Virus record (IMG/VR): IMGVR_UViG_3300044911_002081
Coordinates: 1 to 25,339 of that record
Direction: 5' to 3' (one strand)
Source: a virus
Taxonomy: Duplodnaviria > Caudoviricetes
DNA: 25,339 nucleotides
Positions 4,032 through 20,521 of this stretch are shown in pieces (position 1 is the stretch's first letter; every line of letters starts with the position of its first letter). Made by a program: the position numbers and the translations under genes. The notes under the pieces were generated by a model. It saw only the letters and a program-made list of their open reading frames with translations. It was not told the origin of the DNA and did no database searches.

Positions 4032-5426
4032 CTACCTGACCTTAAATGTTCCCCCGCCACGGAAGCTAGGCATACGTTTAGCCGAATGGCTCTTAGCCTT
4101 AATGGTTCCACCAACGAAACCTGCAGGTGGTTTAATAAGGAGGGCTGTGAGGGCATGGACCAGGGCGTCGACTCGGTCTGGGGATTTACCCTCGCCTGGA
4201 ATCCAAGCGCACATCTGGGACTCGAGGTCGCCCAGGTAGCCAACGTGGTGGACACGGTTCTGTTCGTAGGCAAGCGTGATTGGCTCAGCGCGTAGGGCTT
4301 TGCCGTACTTGGAGTGGACCTCAAGGACCTTTACAGTTGGGTCAATTGTGTTAATGGCGTTGCGAACCAGCGCACCACCTTGGTTTACTTCGGCTACCAC
4401 AGGGCAACCCCACTTGCGAGCCATTTGCACTACCTTGTTAGCCCAGACCTCTGGTGAACCGTGAATGGACGCGTCCTCAAGTACCCAGCTCTGTCGTTTG
4501 TATAAGTCTCGTTCACCGGTAGAAGCTACAACGACTATGCCGCATTCGTCTCTAGGATTCTCGGCTACTGATGGGTCAACGCCAATGCATCGCAAAGGAG
4601 TTCCCATTGGCAACTGCATCTCTCGACCGCGGTCGATGAGCTCCTGTGTCCAGAGAGCTCCTTCAACATCTGAAAGCATCTCACCGTAGAGCTCTTGTGC
4701 AGCTAAGCGAGTTCCTTCGTACACTCCAACGATTGCGTCGATGTAAGCTTGAGAAAGGTTTCCGCTGTTGTCTAGTGTAGAACCTTTTGTAATAACTACC
4801 TTGCCAGTCTTCTCAGCTTCAGCGATGAGCTGGTAAAGAAGCGGCACACGCTTAGGAGTTGTCGTAATCATAATTTTTGGATTCGCGCCAAGACGAGTAC
4901 CAACGCGTAAGTTGTCGAAGGCTGTCATGCCAGCTGCATCAGGAGTTTGTCTCCAGGCTGCAACCTCATCTCCCCAGGCGTGCGTGAATTGCGGACCACG
5001 AAGTGAGTCTGGTTCATCAGCTGTGAAGCATGTTGCCGTATTGCCGTTGGGCCAAGTTAGTCTTCGCTTAGATGGTTCGTACAATGGACGTTCGCTTGGA
5101 GGAGTTACGTTAATAATTCCAGATTCACCCTCAACGATTACGTCACGTACGTCAGCAGCTGTACGAGCTACCAAAGCAAAACGGCGTTGGCCATTTGTTG
5201 TGTACTTAGCTTCTTCACGCACCCACTCGGCTGCGGTACGAGTCTTACCAGCTCCGCGACCGGCGATGTAAGCCCAGATGTTCCAATCACCTGGCGGAGC
5301 TTGTTGCTCAGGGCGTCCCCACACTGACCAGTCCCAAAGGAGATTATCTGGGTCGAAACCCGCAAGGATTTCATTACGCTGCTCCTCAGGGAGATGCGCG
5401 AGCTGTTCCATTAGACTTTTAGCCAT
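4032..5426 (-). CDS. terL: Terminase large subunit
   Basis: Walker A AGRGAGKT, LRGPQF..AWGDE Walker B, ITTTP coupling motif, nuclease IGVDP and PDRVDA. Confidence 0.95.
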   Translation of the reverse strand: MAKSLMEQLAHLPEEQRNEILAGFDPDNLLWDWSVWGRPEQQAPPGDWNIWAYIAGRGAGKTRTAAEWVREEAKYTTNGQRRFALVARTAADVRDVIVEGESGIINVTPPSERPLYEPSKRRLTWPNGNTATCFTADEPDSLRGPQFTHAWGDEVAAWRQTPDAAGMTAFDNLRVGTRLGANPKIMITTTPKRVPLLYQLIAEAEKTGKVVITKGSTLDNSGNLSQAYIDAIVGVYEGTRLAAQELYGEMLSDVEGALWTQELIDRGREMQLPMGTPLRCIGVDPSVAENPRDECGIVVVASTGERDLYKRQSWVLEDASIHGSPEVWANKVVQMARKWGCPVVAEVNQGGALVRNAINTIDPTVKVLEVHSKYGKALRAEPITLAYEQNRVHHVGYLGDLESQMCAWIPGEGKSPDRVDALVHALTALLIKPPAGFVGGTIKAKSHSAKRMPSFRGGGTFKVR

Positions 5427-5443
5427 GTGTACTATAGTACATT

Positions 5444-5563
5444 AAAAAGAAAGAAGCTAGACGGTTAAGTCTAGCTTCTCTCCCCAGAAAGGCGTCTCTA
5501 GCAGATGGATTGGAGTACATCCGCGAGACCCTCAGCCGAGGAAATGCAATAACCTGGCTGAGT
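5444..5563 (-). ncRNA. Candidate ~120-nt phage small RNA (two hairpins plus terminator)
   Basis: Own promoter (5568-5580), no plausible ORF, hairpins at 5531-5562 and 5494-5529, ends in the terminator at 5452-5479. Confidence 0.7.
5452..5479 (-). terminator. Intrinsic terminator
   Basis: AGAAGCTAGAC/GTCTAGCTTCT stem followed by TTCTTTTT. Confidence 0.85.
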
Positions 5564-5575
5564 AGGCTAATTATA

Positions 5576-6505
5576 TCATGAAAAAATCATAACTTCGTCA
5601 TGAATCTTTGAGACTACGCTTGCCCAGATAGCTGGAGTATGGTCGAACGGTTGATAACCACCAGCTCCCCCGATGAGTACACGACCTTCCGAATAGGCAG
5701 AAGCAATACGACCGACTGTCGCAGCTGCATCTTCATATCCAGGATAGTCAAATTGTAAAGTAGATAGTGGATCTGACTTATGTGCGTCAGCTCCTGTAGC
5801 TACTAAAACAACATCTGGCTTTACCGTATCAGCAAGTTGTTCGATTTCTCCCATAGCTCTACGAAACTCATCATCACCGCTTGCTGGGTCTAATGCCCAG
5901 TTATAAACTCCGAGCTCAGGGAAGTGTCCCTTTAGCCCAGTGCCCGGGAAGATAACAGAATCGTGAATGCTGCAGGTAACCAAATCGGCAGAGCCTGACA
6001 GTAAGTTCTCGACGCCATCGCCGTGATGTGCGTCCCAGTCGATGTACATAACTTTCATACCGTTCTTCTGGAATTCACGTGCAGCCCAAGCCATATCGTT
6101 GAATACGCAGAAACCAGATGAGTGGTCGTACTGCGCATGATGCTTAGCTCCCTGAGGATTAAAGCCAACCTTCAGCTCGCCAGCTAACATCTTCTCAGTG
6201 AGACGAACAGTTCCCGCAAACATATGAAGAGCTACTTGTCCCATGTGCTTATTATCTGGGTACCATTGCCCACCTTTACCGCGGTCAATAACATCAGATA
6301 CATATTTCATATCGTGAATAGACTCAACACGTTCTCTGTCTCCAGCTTGAATATCTGGTTTTACAAGAACGATGTCTCTGTCTTCAGCAATAAGCTCCGT
6401 AGCGTACTTAGCTCTGACTGGATTAGTTGGGTGTGAGCTATCTGGCCCACCAAGCTTCCAGTCTAAGTAGATGTCGTCGTAAGCGACATGCAGTTTATTT
6501 TTCAT
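5576..6505 (-). CDS. Zn-dependent deacetylase, HDAC/AcuC family
   Basis: HPTNP, GAKHHA..SGFCVFND, IDWDAHHGDG, FPGTG, GADAH..DPL and GGY motifs. Confidence 0.92.
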   Translation of the reverse strand: MKNKLHVAYDDIYLDWKLGGPDSSHPTNPVRAKYATELIAEDRDIVLVKPDIQAGDRERVESIHDMKYVSDVIDRGKGGQWYPDNKHMGQVALHMFAGTVRLTEKMLAGELKVGFNPQGAKHHAQYDHSSGFCVFNDMAWAAREFQKNGMKVMYIDWDAHHGDGVENLLSGSADLVTCSIHDSVIFPGTGLKGHFPELGVYNWALDPASGDDEFRRAMGEIEQLADTVKPDVVLVATGADAHKSDPLSTLQFDYPGYEDAAATVGRIASAYSEGRVLIGGAGGYQPFDHTPAIWASVVSKIHDEVMIFS

Positions 6506-7007
6506 TTGTAGTTGTGTCCTTAATATGTAGGTAGTCAACAAAATCGTTGTTGAGTAACACTGCGTTAGATCTCTTGTCCCGCATCAACTGAATCGCATCA
6601 GCAGAAGAGTATCCTTCAAGCATGAGGGCAAGACCCATCGTTAAGCTAGAACGGTTAATCCCAGCTTGACAACGAATCAATACTCGCTTGCCAGATTTCC
6701 AAGCGGCATGTGCAAATGCAGCTGCCTCATGAAGTGAAGCGTAATCCGCATTGCCCTCAAGACCTGAGTCGTAAAAGCCATAACGAAGTTCTTGCACAAA
6801 CCAGTCAACTGGATTTGCCCAAGCGTAAAGAGTTACTACCGTATCGAAATCATCTTTAGTGATAGCACGAGATGTATGAATGTTTGCTGCATCCTCAATC
6901 GTGTCATCATCATCTGTTCCACCAAGAAATAATCCTGGAAGTATCTCACTCCATAGGGGGAAGTCCCAGTCAATATCGTGTACTGGTGCGTATGAAGCAT
7001 TAGTCAT
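6495..7007 (-). CDS. Dual-specificity protein phosphatase
   Basis: EILPGLFLG and VLIRCQAGINRS (CX5R); GGAGG RBS. Confidence 0.9.
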   Translation of the reverse strand: MTNASYAPVHDIDWDFPLWSEILPGLFLGGTDDDDTIEDAANIHTSRAITKDDFDTVVTLYAWANPVDWFVQELRYGFYDSGLEGNADYASLHEAAAFAHAAWKSGKRVLIRCQAGINRSSLTMGLALMLEGYSSADAIQLMRDKRSNAVLLNNDFVDYLHIKDTTTNEK

Positions 7008-7009
7008 TA

Positions 7010-7228
7010 CTACCCTCCGGTCATCTCTAACCAGCACTTAGGATGTATGCCAGAAATCATTTGTTCACGAATTGCAATGTCCATGTCTGGGAAAGCCTCT
7101 TGAATCAGCTTACCGAAATTCCACTCAAGGAATCCAATAGCTGGAACTTCGACAACTCCCTGCTCACCGCACATTCCGCATGCAGGAGTAGTGACTATGT
7201 AGGTTTCTTTTGATAGATCTGTAGACAT
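7010..7228 (-). CDS. Small zinc-binding protein
   Basis: CGMC...IQEAFPDM...REQMISGIHPKCW; promoter and start box upstream. Confidence 0.7.
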   Translation of the reverse strand: MSTDLSKETYIVTTPACGMCGEQGVVEVPAIGFLEWNFGKLIQEAFPDMDIAIREQMISGIHPKCWLEMTGG

Positions 7229-7291
7229 TTTCTTTGTCCTTTCGTCATTTGATATATCTATTATATCAGGTAATGTTACCCGCAAGTACCA

Positions 7292-7858
7292 TTACTCTTC
7301 TTGTATGTACGTATGAATCTCTCCACCGGAGTAGATGTCATGTTTGCAAGCAGCTTCAATAGCTCTCCGCAATACTTTCTCGGCAGCCTCCGGTGTCTTA
7401 ACCCTTTGGAAGTTAAGAGCTTCGAGAGCTCCAAGAGCTATATCGCCACCACTCCCTGAGTAGTAAACGTTCCTAGCTTCTCTGTCCCAGCTGTAATCAT
7501 TAAAGATAGGATAGATGACTCCGCGTACTGAAACTATTAAGTTAGAATCGTGCCAAGCTGCATCACCGTCTTCTTTACCTTCGAACCCAGCATCAACGAA
7601 AGCTTTGCGAAGTGACGGTATGAATTTTTTTGTCATAAAAACGTCGAGGTCTTCGCTACGAGTAGGAGTTGGAGGTTTCCAACCGAACTGCGCAATGTTT
7701 CCACCACGCGATGCACCAGACACAGCAATGAGAACTCCATTGTTGTCTACGATTTTATGAGTCGCAAGGTCCATGAAGCGACCGTCCTCATCAGATGCTC
7801 GTGAATCACAGCCGATGACTGACCAGCCATCACCTTGAATTGCCGCAAGCGTAGTCAT
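7292..7858 (-). CDS. HslV/proteasome-beta-like Ntn hydrolase
   Basis: N-terminal MTT (Thr nucleophile), DSR, GSGG..ALGAL, D.YSGG. Confidence 0.85.
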   Translation of the reverse strand: MTTLAAIQGDGWSVIGCDSRASDEDGRFMDLATHKIVDNNGVLIAVSGASRGGNIAQFGWKPPTPTRSEDLDVFMTKKFIPSLRKAFVDAGFEGKEDGDAAWHDSNLIVSVRGVIYPIFNDYSWDREARNVYYSGSGGDIALGALEALNFQRVKTPEAAEKVLRRAIEAACKHDIYSGGEIHTYIQEE

Positions 7859-9471: not shown

Positions 9472-9714
9472 TTAAGCTGAGTAAGCGATTGTGTAACCTT
9501 TGTCGAGCTTTGATTGGATCTTATCCATCGCTGCCCAACGTGCTCCTTGTGCGCTTGAAAACGTTTTTACCTGACGTTGGCGACTTGGCTTCTCTGCCAT
9601 TCCCCACACTGCGGTAAACGAATTTCCATCAACTGAAAGTTCGTAAACTTTCTTCTTTCCTAGAGCTCCGCGTGTTCCATCGGATACTTTTACTAGGCAC
9701 CATTTTGTCTGCAC
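9472..9714 (-). CDS. WGR-domain protein
   Basis: KVYELSV...AVWG...F.SA..A...KI.SKLDKGY; GTG start after the ACGGAAGGA box. Confidence 0.75.
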   Translation of the reverse strand: MQTKWCLVKVSDGTRGALGKKKVYELSVDGNSFTAVWGMAEKPSRQRQVKTFSSAQGARWAAMDKIQSKLDKGYTIAYSA

Positions 9715-9851: not shown

Positions 9852-10328
9852 TTAGTATGTATCTGGGAGAGTTTCCTTTAGCTCATCAAACTCACCGCTG
9901 AGGATTCTGTTTTGGACTTCTTCATCTGTGATGAGACCATAAGCCCAGAAAGTACTTTCTTTATTTAGGATATCTTGGAGGAAGTATAGGTATCTTTCTT
10001 CATCTTCATCCACTGATTCTGGGGATAGGTACTCGATACCATCAATCTCTTCATAGCCACCGATATCTAGGTGGTGGTAAGTATTATCTGGGTACCGAAG
10101 GAGGAACCCTTGACCATCATGCATTGCTATTACTACTGCTGTGTCTTGGGGTAGAGAAGGGTGCCAATACTGAATTGTGCCATCAAATTCCTTGATGCCA
10201 CCCTCAACTCGGTCTTCATCATTGATTCCTGCAAATCCTATGTTGCTGTAGATCTCTGAGAATGGTTTTCCTGGGACATCTTTGAATACTTGGTTAAAGA
10301 TTTCTGAGGGTGTTTGTTGATTCAACAT
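9852..10328 (-). CDS. Acidic hypothetical protein
   Basis: Long ORF behind the promoter at 10360. Confidence 0.75.
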   Translation of the reverse strand: MLNQQTPSEIFNQVFKDVPGKPFSEIYSNIGFAGINDEDRVEGGIKEFDGTIQYWHPSLPQDTAVVIAMHDGQGFLLRYPDNTYHHLDIGGYEEIDGIEYLSPESVDEDEERYLYFLQDILNKESTFWAYGLITDEEVQNRILSGEFDELKETLPDTY

Positions 10329-12006: not shown

Positions 12007-12261
12007 TTAGTCTTCTATGTCTTGGATTGACTCGTTTAGAAGCTCTGTGAACTTTGTGCGGAACTCTTCGACTGCGGTATGAATTACAGCCTCGATGTCG
12101 AGAGACTTTAGGAAGTCTTCGATTTCAACTTCGCCTGCGAGGCTGAACATTTCTTCCTTAACGAGGAACTTTAGCTCACCATCAGCGTCGCGGTCTGCGG
12201 CGTCGATAATCTGCTGCACTGCGTTCTCACCGAGCGAGAGGCTGTTTGTCATGCTGGTCAT
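12007..12261 (-). CDS. Acidic hypothetical protein
   Basis: GGATTGGAG RBS; promoter at 12293. Confidence 0.75.
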   Translation of the reverse strand: MTSMTNSLSLGENAVQQIIDAADRDADGELKFLVKEEMFSLAGEVEIEDFLKSLDIEAVIHTAVEEFRTKFTELLNESIQDIED

Positions 12262-12370
12262 TTGGATCTCCAATCCGTAGGTGTTGTTAGGTTAATTATA
12301 TCATGGTTTTTAATAAATGCCTACGCGAAACGCGCGGCATGCAGAGCAGAGGCCGCGCGGACGCGATAGT

Positions 12371-12727
12371 TTATTCGAACGTGTCGACGTCGATTTGAGT
12401 TTCGAGGTTATACGAAAGTTCGGCGAAGTCAGTGTAGAGAGCGTAAACGTTATTTTCGAGCGGAACGAAAGTTTCGTTGTCGTCGAATTCGTCGAAGCCG
12501 GAATGGCCGATGAAGTGGTCAAGATGTTCGGCAGGGATGTTCAGGATTTGATAATCGTTGTAGCCGGCATTGACGGTGGAAACGAGTGTGATAGGCGAGT
12601 TAGGAAAGCGTTCGGCAAGAAATTGTAGAGCTACGGCGACGCAGAAAGCGTCGTTGAGCTTGACGTCGTGATTTGAGAGTGCAGGCATAGTTGCAGTTGT
12701 TTTTACGAAATCGTTTGCATTTTGCAT
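12371..12727 (-). CDS. Acidic protein, island family A
   Basis: Own promoter; MQNxNDF and LENxVY shared with 13171..13464. Confidence 0.8.
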   Translation of the reverse strand: MQNANDFVKTTATMPALSNHDVKLNDAFCVAVALQFLAERFPNSPITLVSTVNAGYNDYQILNIPAEHLDHFIGHSGFDEFDDNETFVPLENNVYALYTDFAELSYNLETQIDVDTFE

Positions 12728-12793
12728 GAAAGGCCCCTTTGTTTGTTTTTGTAATAATTGAATTATATCATGTTTAATTATAAATACGAACGT

Positions 12794-13063
12794 TTATAAA
12801 ATGTTAATTTCGTCGAGGAGTGCAGTTGGCAAGTGGGAAGCGCAGAAGGCGACGGAAGAGTCGATTGTGTAGAACGGAGTCGTAATGTTGAAGCTGGCAG
12901 AGCAAGCGTCGCAAGAAATGAGTGTGTCGTTTGTTTTTGCGAGAAGAAGAGAGAATTCAGAAAAGTCGAAGTCGATTTCAGAGTCGACGTAATCAGTAGT
13001 GAAGTCGATTTTTGCGTATGAGTCGTAATTGTTATTACGGATATTTGTTTGTGTGGTTGTCAT
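12794..13063 (-). CDS. Acidic Cys/His protein, island family B
   Basis: Own promoter and TTGGAG RBS; CxSHxPxALxDxIxxL terminus shared with 13567..13845. Confidence 0.8.
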   Translation of the reverse strand: MTTTQTNIRNNNYDSYAKIDFTTDYVDSEIDFDFSEFSLLLAKTNDTLISCDACSASFNITTPFYTIDSSVAFCASHLPTALLDEINIL

Positions 13064-13136
13064 GAAAATCTCCAATTCGTAATTTGTAATAAGTTAATTA
13101 TATCATGTTTATTATGTTTTTTGTAAATACGCGAAG

Positions 13137-13162
13137 GGCCGCGCAGTTGTGAGCTGCGCGGC
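13137..13162 (-). terminator. GC hairpin between island genes
   Basis: GCCGCGCAG/CTGCGCGGC stem, then a T-rich tail on the minus strand. Confidence 0.6.
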
Positions 13163-13170
13163 GCGAGCGT

Positions 13171-13464
13171 TTAGATGTAATCAGGAAACAGAGATTGAAG
13201 TTTAGAAATCGCAGCAGGGTTGAGATTTGCAGCGATTTCAGAAGGATTAGCGAGAAAAGAATAAACGTCGTTTTCGAGTTTTTCGTCAGTATCGGCGTTA
13301 AAGTAAAGATCGAGAAAGCCAGATGAGTCGGCAGGGATACGGAAAGTCATGTAGGTGTCGTAAGAGTTAGGGTACGAAGTATTTATGTATTCGATGTTTG
13401 TAAAGCCGGATTCAGAAATAAATTCAAAAGCTACGGAAGACGCGAAGTCGTTTGTGTTTTGCAT
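13171..13464 (-). CDS. Acidic protein, island family A
   Basis: Own promoter and TTGGAG RBS. Confidence 0.8.
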   Translation of the reverse strand: MQNTNDFASSVAFEFISESGFTNIEYINTSYPNSYDTYMTFRIPADSSGFLDLYFNADTDEKLENDVYSFLANPSEIAANLNPAAISKLQSLFPDYI

Positions 13465-13534
13465 GATGAAATCTCCAATTCGTTAGTTTGTAATATGTTT
13501 ATTATATCATGTTTATAATAAAATAAATACGAAA

Positions 13535-13554
13535 GGCCCAGCGTGAGCTGGGCC
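13535..13554 (-). terminator. GC hairpin between island genes
   Basis: GGCCCAGC/GCTGGGCC stem, then TTTCGTATTTATTTT. Confidence 0.7.
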
Positions 13555-13566
13555 AGTCGCGGCAGG

Positions 13567-13845
13567 TTACAGGGCTGCGATAAAGTCGCGGAGAGCTTGT
13601 GGCTGATGTGACAGGCAGTTAGTCATGATGGACTGGACAGGCGAGTCGTCGAGGAACGAAATTGACGGCAAGGTTTTTTTGTTGCAGTCGTCGAATTCGC
13701 AGTCGTAGTCAGTGTCAGTGAAGTTGATTTGGACGTTGTAGACGTCGTTGTTTTCGGCAGCGTCAAGGTCGTTGAAAAGCATTGGGTCGATTTCAAGAAC
13801 GAGTGCGTCAGCGGTTTTTTCGATGATTTTGATTTGTGCGGACAT
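13567..13845 (-). CDS. Acidic Cys/His protein, island family B
   Basis: Own promoter and GGAG RBS. Confidence 0.8.
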   Translation of the reverse strand: MSAQIKIIEKTADALVLEIDPMLFNDLDAAENNDVYNVQINFTDTDYDCEFDDCNKKTLPSISFLDDSPVQSIMTNCLSHQPQALRDFIAAL

Positions 13846-13959
13846 GATGTCTCCAGTCGTTATATTAACGTATTCGTTAATAAATGAATTATATCATGTT
13901 TATAATAAAAATATTACGAAAAGCCAGAGCGTTTTCGCGCCCTGGCCTCTCGCAACAAC

Positions 13960-14181
13960 TTACTTTATTTCGCCATCTTCGTAATCTGGAAAAATCTCTG
14001 AGAGACTTTGGTAGAATTTTTCAGAAGGTGAAGCGGTAAGCTTAATTGTTGGCCAGCTATTCGCGCCGTTCGCGCTTTCCAAAATCTGAACTGAAATTAC
14101 TCCATCAATTCCTAGGAGATTTTCAACTGTTTGGTCTAGGCTGATCTCTTCAGTAACTACATCGAATTCATACATCTTCAT
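13960..14181 (-). CDS. Acidic hypothetical protein
   Basis: GATTGGAG RBS; promoter at 14222. Confidence 0.7.
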   Translation of the reverse strand: MKMYEFDVVTEEISLDQTVENLLGIDGVISVQILESANGANSWPTIKLTASPSEKFYQSLSEIFPDYEDGEIK

Positions 14182-14224
14182 CTTAAGCTCCAATCAACTT
14201 ATAACGTAATTCGTTATAAGTTAA

Positions 14225-14518: not shown

Positions 14519-14697
14519 TGCACAAGCTCAGCTTCTGGGAACCAGCGGAAGAATGTGAAGAGCAGCTGGGCGTAATCGCCAGCCGTCATCTCTTCAGTGA
14601 AGGCCGCAATCTCATCGTGGCGACCTAGCTTCTTTAACTCGCGCTGACCTGCCGCAATGATGGCAAACGCGTTGCCGTCTGAAATCTGTACTGCCAT
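14515..14697 (-). CDS. Small phage protein (DGNAFAII...GDY..LL)
   Basis: ACGACGGAGGA box before the ATG. Confidence 0.75.
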   Translation of the reverse strand: MAVQISDGNAFAIIAAGQRELKKLGRHDEIAAFTEEMTAGDYAQLLFTFFRWFPEAELVQ

Positions 14698-14724
14698 GTT
14701 GTCCTCCGTCGTTTGAATGTTAGG

Positions 14725-14800
14725 ACGCGGCAGGAGCTGGGATTGTTTCGTGCCTTCTGCAGAAGGTGGTTGTTTGACCACCAGTGCTTCCCTGCCGCGT
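14725..14800 (-). ncRNA. Candidate structured 5' leader
   Basis: Closed by the 10-bp stem ACGCGGCAGG/CCTGCCGCGT; lies between the promoter at 14806 and the start box. Confidence 0.55.
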
Positions 14801-14818
14801 TGGTTTAATTATATCAGG

Positions 14819-15009: not shown

Positions 15010-15162
15010 TTAACCCACCTGGAACGCATCGCAATAGCGACATTGGTACCAGTCGCCAAGCTTTGAGTCTTCTACGTACTCGTGGATGTAGTCGTGCTGG
15101 TCATCGGTAGCGCAAAAGATATCGTCACCGCGCCGTATAAAGCTGCGTGCCTTTGTTTGCAT
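15010..15162 (-). CDS. Small CxxC protein, 50 aa (MQTKARSFIRRGDDIFC...QCRYCDAFQVG)
   Basis: Hand-translated; ACGACGAAAGGA box. Confidence 0.7.
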   Translation of the reverse strand: MQTKARSFIRRGDDIFCATDDQHDYIHEYVEDSKLGDWYQCRYCDAFQVG

Positions 15163-15185
15163 GGTCGTCCTTTCGTCGTTTAGGT

Positions 15186-15297
15186 GTTCAAGGGCCGCGG
15201 TGATACTTCGGCCAATCTTGCCAGAGGTCTCTTGCGAGACGTGGACTCGGGCGTCGCATGTTCCGCCTAGTTTAACTAGTGGCTAGCACCCTTGAAC
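15186..15297 (-). ncRNA. Candidate multi-stem 5' leader RNA
   Basis: Closing stem GTTCAAGGG/CCCTTGAAC; internal CTAGT/ACTAG, GGCG/CGCC and GTCTC-GCAA-GAGAC. Confidence 0.6.
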
Positions 15298-15304
15298 GAG
15301 TTAA

Positions 15305-20190: not shown

Positions 20191-20490
20191 CTAGCAGTGG
20201 CAAGCGCCACTGCTAGAAGGGGTCACGAAGCAACCTGCGCAGACCACAGCCTTTGGGGCTGGTGGAGTGTTGCGAGGTGTGGTAAGCCCAGAGGTTGTGA
20301 GCTTATTAGATACTGAGTAGTAACTACGACCCAGCTGCTTTGCGATGTCCTTGATTGGCATATTGCCAGCTTTGAGGGTTTCAAGGGTGCGGATTTCCGC
20401 CAGTGTCCATTCCTCATTGAGGTTAATGGCTGTAGCTAGTGAGAAGCCCTGGGCTTCGCGTTGCCAGAGTAAAGGTGATTGGGTTTGCAT
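20191..20490 (-). CDS. HTH/Myb-like protein with C-terminal Cys cluster
   Basis: WTLAEIRTL...IKDIAKQLGRSYYSV; CAGC...CHC. Confidence 0.75.
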   Translation of the reverse strand: MQTQSPLLWQREAQGFSLATAINLNEEWTLAEIRTLETLKAGNMPIKDIAKQLGRSYYSVSNKLTTSGLTTPRNTPPAPKAVVCAGCFVTPSSSGACHC

Positions 20491-20521
20491 TTTCTTCCTT
20501 CCGTCGTTGTGTATGGTTCTA

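Follow-up and report, generated by a model that had tools for sequence, protein, structure and literature searches.

Genomic setting of the element

The stretch of DNA that we analysed, referred to as the window, is a phage fragment of 25,339 nt in which nearly all genes lie on the minus strand. A small structured element fills the gap between two of these genes, one of the histone-deacetylase family and the large terminase (Table 1). The terminase shares 79% identity with its counterpart in Actinomycetia phage DSL-LC01 and about 60% with those of Microbacterium phages. DSL-LC01 is itself a metagenome assembly from a lake, with a predicted actinobacterial host (PMC10611076). From this likeness and this host prediction we infer an actinobacterial host, and the carriers of the element are likely to be uncultured phages that infect freshwater actinobacteria.

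The deacetylase-family gene belongs to a block of protein-modifying enzymes (5576-7858, minus strand) that also encodes an HslV/proteasome-like subunit and a dual-specificity phosphatase, and that lies directly upstream of the element. In one clade of relatives that carry the element, a tRNA gene stands upstream of this block (L146:3773-3845, L148:120-192 and L130:878-950); none was found in the 25,339 nt of the window. Further upstream on the same strand, positions 12261-13900 contain a series of cassettes that is rich in AT and in which the strong GC skew reaches 0.39. These cassettes encode small acidic proteins without Pfam match, and their gene content differs even from that of a near-identical phage (L131/G006).

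Table 1. Coordinates of the element, its neighbours and its predicted target sites in the window.
Feature	Position	Strand	Remark
Large terminase (PF03237, PF17289)	4032..5426	-	downstream neighbour of the element
-10 element TACTAT, likely separate	5434..5439	-	7 nt before the terminase ATG
Terminator-like hairpin and U tail	5444..5483	-	loop sequence variable among homologs
Linker with CCUUUC(U)	5484..5493	-	copy of the 16S tail; complementary to GAAAGG-type ribosome sites
Hairpin 2	5494..5529	-	GUCUC base helix; loop 5517-5508 carries CUCCAAUC(C)
Hairpin 1	5531..5562	-	loop 5552-5542 carries UUGCAUUU with CAU anti-start-codon core
Extended -10 promoter box TGATATAAT	5570..5578	-	same class as in the early-gene cassettes
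Histone-deacetylase-family gene (PF00850)	5576..6502	-	upstream neighbour of the element
Best predicted loop-2 target, GGATTGGAG	12268..12276	-	9 nt, perfect; start at 12261
Predicted loop-1 target, AAATGCAA at 12722	12715..12727	-	first five codons of 12371..12727
Predicted loop-2 target, ATTGGAG	13070..13076	-	7 nt; start at 13063
Predicted two-seed target, ATTGGAG (loop 2) and ATGCAA start (loop 1)	13459..13479	-	both in one leader
Predicted loop-2 target, GATTGGAG	14188..14195	-	8 nt; start at 14181
Predicted two-seed target, GGAAGG (linker, one G-U pair) and AAATGCAA start (loop 1, 8 nt)	20485..20503	-	

Promoter, fold and coding potential

The promoter box TG[AT]TATAAT has 23 copies on the minus strand of the window and one on the plus strand. 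Most copies are followed by a leader of 19-37 nt and then a small early-type gene, and the leaders are mostly of two start-box types, ACGACG[AG]AAGGA and [AG]ATTGGA[GA]. The box of the element shares its TGA with the stop codon of the deacetylase gene, and transcription is predicted to start near 5563. A strict box stands at most 30 nt upstream in 27/39 homologs and is degenerate in the other 12/39; a relaxed pattern fits 39/39 and is too loose to count. A generic consensus scan listed neither the promoter, which has no -35 match, nor the terminator. The predicted transcript (5562-5444, minus strand) folds into hairpin 1, hairpin 2, the linker and a terminator-like stem of 15-18 bp with a U tail. 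Its energy is -55 kcal/mol (z -6.12), and 0/200 shuffles were equally stable. The box and the fold thus bear out the description in the first-pass annotation, namely a consensus promoter driving about 120 nt with two hairpins and a terminator. Three segments are largely open in the predicted fold: the loop of hairpin 1 (loop 1; 0.83 unpaired), the loop of hairpin 2 (loop 2; 0.96) and the linker (0.62).

That annotation had also seen no plausible open reading frame. This holds in part: a 33-codon ATG frame does begin within hairpin 2, and its ATG is present in only 10/39 homologs. The frame is not conserved, as homologs range from 122 to 138 nt with varied indels. We rejected a reading of the element on the plus strand, as the promoter, the U tail, the G-U changes and the better folding of the minus strand in 32/39 homologs point to the minus strand. 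An Rfam search, proposed at the outset as a check, assigned the element to no family: with Rfam 15 the window had no match even at an E value of 1, and in six divergent loci none lay over the RNA.

The terminator ends 17 nt before the terminase start, and the terminase transcript is predicted to be leaderless. In several relatives a -10-like box likewise precedes the ATG of the terminase by 5-7 nt, also where the RNA is absent. A general rule that late genes are leaderless found no support, since the (crude) pattern occurs at only 0-3 of 10-52 long ORFs per genome.

Conservation and covariation

Related terminases were found in 505 viral stretches, of which the best 80 were fetched. A homolog model built from 22 homologs, which lacks the hairpin-1 pairs because these were mis-registered in its alignment, scored above 50 bits in 40/80 of these terminase-bearing loci. 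Further RNA-bearing contigs were reached through the deacetylase gene. In a metagenome pattern scan 15/31 pattern matches exceeded 60 bits, although such scans gave many chance matches. One sequencing run, probably of DNA, yielded 8 short contig pieces of relatives, uninformative about expression. The resulting working set comprises 39 distinct homologs, all of which fold well (z -3.6 to -10.3, median -6.5, with 30 shuffles each). A blastn search of 50,697 phage records with the element as query returned only four short chance matches, and 61 actinobacterial genomes held no full match and one partial match to the terminator only.

The stems covary. We picked 11 sequences in which hairpin 1 is in register in a plain sequence alignment, and 10/16 named pairs were changed on both sides while 99.4% of cells remained paired. 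This value was reached by 0/500 shuffles, a figure inflated by the relatedness of the sequences, and slid partners paired at 26-47%. With 22 sequences, 13/29 predicted pairs were changed on both sides. Hairpin 1 contributes both-side changes in 6/7 outer pairs, and the terminator helix (alignment columns 106-117) is 100% paired with 4/12 pairs changed on both sides. At the base of hairpin 2, GUCUC is present in 39/39 homologs and four base pairs never vary.

The open segments are kept as well. Loop 1 contains CAU in 35/39 homologs and CAU or CGU in 38/39, one lineage being without CAU. Loop 2 contains CUCC in 34/39 and CUCCAAU in 31/39. The linker contains CCUUU in 37/39, CCUUUC in 31/39 and UCCUUUC in only 10/39. 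The loop of the terminator is variable and often C-rich. The converse pattern, in which stems are kept and loops drift, was not what we found: loops 1 and 2 are fixed in most of the 39 homologs and, as first claimed, antisense to translation starts, and the stems covary. On this sequence evidence the element is real, conserved, strongly folded and non-coding, and about 120 nt long.

Genomic position and loss

The RNA directly follows the deacetylase gene in all homologs inspected, and what lies downstream varies. A second clade has it in front of another gene, one with a promoter box of its own, and in two loci (L009 and L080) about 4 kb separate it from the terminase. In a clade of 13 rows the deacetylase gene stands directly before the terminase, with no RNA between them and with TACTAT kept 7 nt before the terminase ATG. 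In a deacetylase tree (49 rows, midpoint root) this RNA-less clade nests among RNA-bearing rows, which suggests a single loss. Moreover, no match to the RNA was found in the complete relative G004, in G005 (90%) or in DSL-LC01, so that the RNA is dispensable for this phage group. Because it follows the deacetylase gene, precedes varied genes and was lost in one clade, the RNA is not a terminase leader. The claim of a stand-alone structured small RNA is therefore well supported, by the covariation, the differing downstream genes and the loss in a sister clade. With its own promoter and terminator and its independence from its neighbours, the element looks, at the level of sequence, like a trans-acting small RNA.

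Complementarity to the start codon and likeness to the 16S tail

In an actinobacterial bin the 16S rRNA ends in CACCUCCUUUCU(A). The linker repeats 7 nt of this tail exactly and loop 2 repeats 4 nt; AAU(CC) in loop 2 has no counterpart there. Loop 1 holds the complement of AUG, and the change from CAU to CGU keeps pairing with AUG. In a post hoc test, all three anti-start or anti-Shine-Dalgarno motifs occurred together in 570/200000 shuffles of the same composition and in 5/200000 uniform sequences, while U/C-rich segments reached the single motif thresholds fairly often (0.18, 0.52 and 0.04). Within the RNA, the anti-AUG segment precedes the anti-Shine-Dalgarno segments, as it must if a single message is to be bound at both of its sites. 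Against fetched actinobacterial 16S rRNA the loops gave perfect runs of only 6-7 nt. At the site before the start at 12261, pairing is predicted to be stronger with loop 2 than with the 16S tail (-14.9 vs -9.4 kcal/mol); at GAAAGG-type sites the linker is weaker than the tail (-8.2 vs -9.8).

Matches to early gene starts in the window

Loop 2 is complementary to ribosome sites of the (G)GAUUGGAG type. The first-pass annotation listed four such matches (12268-12276, 14188-14195, 13070-13076 and 13473-13479), and all are present, together with a fifth site of 7 nt at the gene starting at 10328. Both matches that it proposed for loop 1 were also located (AAATGCAA at 20492 and 12722, minus strand), although the one within 12371..12727 spans codons 2-5 and not codons 2-4; two further loop-1 matches are of 6 nt (13464 and 15162). 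The complementarity between the linker and the GAAAGG start box was likewise found, with 15 occurrences of GAAAGG on the coding strand of the window. At 13459..13479 the two seed sites stand in the order that fits the RNA.

To these sites we applied a start set curated by hand, with 20 promoter-box (early) and 21 other starts (41 in total). At least 7 perfect pairs with loop 2 were found at 5/20 early and 0/21 other starts. At early starts, 10/300 shuffles equalled loop 2 on mean energy and 1/300 on the top four sites, and 67/4000 random loops with a fixed CUCC core reached 5/41 starts. By energy at window starts, neither loop 1 (220/300; 82/300) nor the linker (49/300; 94/300) did better than its own shuffles. 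The two 8-nt matches of loop 1 were equalled by 46/3000 random loops with CAU fixed. Scoring against shuffled controls thus places loop 2 above background, but not loop 1 or the linker. G[AG]AAGG stands before 13/20 early and 3/21 other starts, and 18/20 early starts carry a site of the linker or loop-2 type. Three of the four starts with at least 6 loop-1 pairs also carry a ribosome-site match (13464, 20490 and 15162). The early leaders are partly open (mean unpaired 0.58). Since the ATTGG sites repeat a single cassette motif, the four loop-2 matches first listed count nearer to one.

Loops and start sites across lineages

Covariation of loops and ribosome sites across related phages was among the checks first proposed. 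Loop 1 fits the start contexts of its own lineage better than under permuted labels (p 0.011, 26 gene families), while three control windows in coding regions gave p 0.70, 0.27 and 0.13. Leaving out the UGCAU lineage, which is one clade, weakens this signal to p 0.15, and the starts of the UUCGU lineage fit the UGCAU loop better than their own. Starts with ATGCA make up 13/53 in the UGCAU lineage, 4/150 in UUCAU and 0/29 in GUCAU, with 6/79 in relatives lacking the RNA. As a single gene, the WGR-domain gene (9472-9714 in the window, and orthologs) has a second codon that follows loop 1 in three lineages, with exceptions: ATGCAA with UGCAU, ATGAAA with UUCAU and ATGACT with GUCAU. It would make a good single-gene test case for loop-1 tracking.

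For loop 2, lineages with ACUCCAAU have ATTGG in 24/124 leaders and GAGG in 1/124, whereas the lineage with ACCUCCAAU, which has one more C, has ATTGG in 0/75 and GAGG in 13/75. Covariation is thus suggested by the loop-1 permutation, which weakens once a single clade is set aside, and by this contrast between loop-2 classes, with counter-examples. Nonetheless, ATTGG also stands before 13/79 genes (11/32 families) in loci without RNA between deacetylase and terminase, on contigs that are mostly fragments. Three ATTGG-bearing contigs, RNA-lacking or neighbouring, were scanned whole and gave no RNA match within what are 14-21% fragments. Moreover, UUCAU lineages have ATTGG before only 3/150 genes, though their loop 2 mostly keeps CUCCAAU. 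With crude start calls, the top 20 loop-2 start sites include 1 promoter-box gene in G001, G002 and G003, and 5/20 are early genes in G006 and G008. The best loop-2 start sites differ between lineages, and no perfect loop-2 site occupies one orthologous place across five RNA-bearing genomes. A site like the phage ATTGGAG start box was also seen in an actinobacterial-bin contig (G010:C36:2058-2078), which is possibly a phage contig.

For the linker, G[AG]AAGG precedes 55/84 promoter-box genes and 15/161 long ORFs (five RNA-bearing contigs, summed). GAAAGG boxes are equally common in the RNA-lacking G004 (11/15) and are simply strong ribosome sites. The base after GAAAGG does not track the linker variants.

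Discussion

Antisense action of the RNA, whether directed at the phage itself or outward, is in our judgement probable. The more specific reading that we prefer, to which we give about an even chance, is that of a stable trans-acting RNA, made early, which damps translation of early messages at the ribosome site and the start codon. The RNA would be transcribed from its early-type promoter and, being stable, would accumulate. Either the linker or loop 2 may nucleate on a ribosome-binding site, and loop 1 might add a second contact at the start codon. Pairing at translation-start regions would block ribosome loading, and the outcome could be a delayed damping of the early cassette genes, in which short and partly open early leaders would be hit hardest; the likely main targets in this lineage would be the phage's own early messages. 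Long genes, about one tenth of which have a linker-type site, and the predicted leaderless terminase would largely escape. Any host message that carries such sites would also be affected.

The original claim was stronger, namely a multi-target RNA that shuts off the phage's own early genes. Such a role is plausible, and loop 2 does beat its shuffles. Against it, the sites amount to one or two copied cassette motifs; ATTGG sites occur without the RNA and are missing in one RNA-bearing lineage (0/75); and the linker, as a copy of the 16S tail, would fit host messages equally well. Additionally, the RNA and its supposed targets have promoters of one class, so that their levels would rise together. 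A delayed damper fits this better than an off-switch.

Alternatively, the RNA might be an anti-Shine-Dalgarno and anti-start RNA aimed outward, which depresses host translation or silences the cassettes of co-infecting relatives or newly acquired ones, its fits to the phage's own leaders being incidental. We consider this unlikely, though several features would suit it: the early-type promoter, the 7 nt that the linker shares with the 16S tail and the identity of CUCC/CCUCC to the core of that tail. Loop 2 is also kept in genomes without early ATTGG sites, and ATTGG cassettes are found in lineages both with and without the RNA. If the RNA were host-directed, the phage would be lowering host translation through an imitation of the 16S tail. 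However, the AAU(CC) of loop 2 is not part of the 16S tail, is kept in 31/39 homologs and matches a phage site class. We searched 41 proxy actinobacterial genomes, reached via the bin that holds a related terminase, and GGATTGGAG before a start was not clearly enriched (77 vs 63 in the reversed control, summed). Of 33 inspected matches 10 look like true starts, in nearly all cases of different genes. A conserved host target for loop 2 was not found, as only one gene recurs among these 10 starts in proxy genomes that may not be the host's.

A protein-binding RNA, acting as a decoy or as the scaffold of a ribonucleoprotein that is possibly tied to the deacetylase module, seems quite unlikely to us. 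Here the pyrimidine-rich loops and the invariant GUCUC helix would form the surface that a protein recognises, with the complementarity as a by-product. The invariant base of hairpin 2, which antisense pairing leaves unexplained, speaks for such a role, as do the constant adjacency to the deacetylase gene and the ease with which U/C-rich segments reach single motif thresholds. On the other hand, even sequences of the same composition rarely combine the three different anti-start-region motifs, the change from CAU to CGU still pairs with AUG, and the deacetylase gene persists without the RNA in the 13-row clade.

That the element works in cis, at the 3' end of the deacetylase message (in stability or termination) or as a leader or attenuator of the terminase, is improbable. 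It does occupy the gap between the two genes, close to the terminase start, and its promoter box is degenerate in 12/39 homologs. Nonetheless, the second clade has a different downstream gene, L009 and L080 carry the RNA far from the terminase, the -10-like element of the terminase stays where the RNA is absent, and a stabilising hairpin needs no fixed loop sequences. Finally, we give almost no credence to a packaging RNA of the phi29 type: the size of about 120 nt and the place beside the terminase in many loci would suit one, but phi29 pRNA requires loop-loop pairing and the open segments here do not pair mutually (0 to -1.6 kcal/mol between different segments), the complete relative G004 has no match, and the terminase is of the PF03237 type.

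The early-made damper can be compared with several known RNAs. In Cuckoo/CcsR and in the staphylococcal UCCC-loop RNAs (RsaE, RNAIII), anti-Shine-Dalgarno motifs lie in unpaired regions of a multi-hairpin RNA; these RNAs are chromosomal, belong to other phyla and have repeated identical loops. The element shares the unpaired anti-Shine-Dalgarno motifs, but it is phage-borne and has no Rfam match. Closer to the presumed host is the 6C small RNA of Actinobacteria, a hairpin RNA that binds several mRNAs through open loops containing C (PMC6486639). Its loop pairing is reported there to need no chaperone, which offers an actinobacterial precedent. Unlike 6C, the element is carried by a phage and has three different motifs (one anti-AUG and two anti-Shine-Dalgarno types) and no C runs; its loops are of the UUCAU/UGCAU type and the CUCCAAUCC type, and the C-run loops that define 6C are absent.

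Among phage RNAs, the c4 antisense RNA of P1 and P7 (RF01695) is likewise trans-acting, with seeds that likely lie in loops (PMC12197685, PMC2864571), and it prevents translation of a phage message by acting near the ribosome-binding site (PMC12197685). c4 has one dedicated target, the ant mRNA, and a role in the immunity of proteobacterial phages, whereas the candidate sites of the element are a repeated start box before many genes; a single dedicated target of the c4 kind was not found across five RNA-bearing genomes. The target boxes themselves resemble the Start Associated Sequences of cluster K mycobacteriophages, which likewise recur, with unusually strong conservation, where small non-structural genes begin (PMC3203893). 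They include bases that 16S pairing does not account for, and the paper leaves open whether their partner is a phage or host RNA or a protein (PMC3203893). Our boxes have another motif and belong to another phage group, and here a candidate RNA partner is encoded in the same genome, yet the boxes occur also in relatives without the RNA. A further-reaching version of the early-made damper is tentative and, in our view, rather unlikely: the anti-AUG loop and two alternative anti-Shine-Dalgarno seeds would form a three-part clamp that reads the early start boxes as one regulon, retunes its loops together with the array and times the early-to-late switch. It would then be the first partner for start-associated sequences in an actinophage.

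The element represents an uncatalogued family of phage RNAs that likely act as antisense blockers of translation starts. In the literature searched, mostly open-access papers, we found no description of this RNA or of an anti-Shine-Dalgarno RNA aimed at a phage's own early array. Its motifs were not found in the searched supplements of PMC10690425, although that study may list it among its unnamed candidates. This RNA family is a compact and testable candidate for the so far unexplained means by which large actinophages reduce the expression of dozens of small early genes with strong host-type promoters, and its natural loop variants permit allele-specific tests.

Other candidate structured RNAs in the window

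Two further candidates for structured RNAs were seen on the minus strand. One, at 15175-15300, is a promoter-driven leader of about 125 nt without an open reading frame, which precedes the small gene 15010..15162 and may be a second structured RNA. It gave 22 blastn matches and no Rfam match, and the 6 distinct versions among the fetched loci differ by paired changes and an insertion in an internal stem. The other, at 14700-14805, is a structured leader that likewise follows a promoter; it belongs to the gene that starts at 14697 and is a candidate cis-regulatory RNA. It has no Rfam match and gave 26 matches in 9 distinct versions, in which the closing stem is changed on both sides and the A-rich internal segments are conserved.
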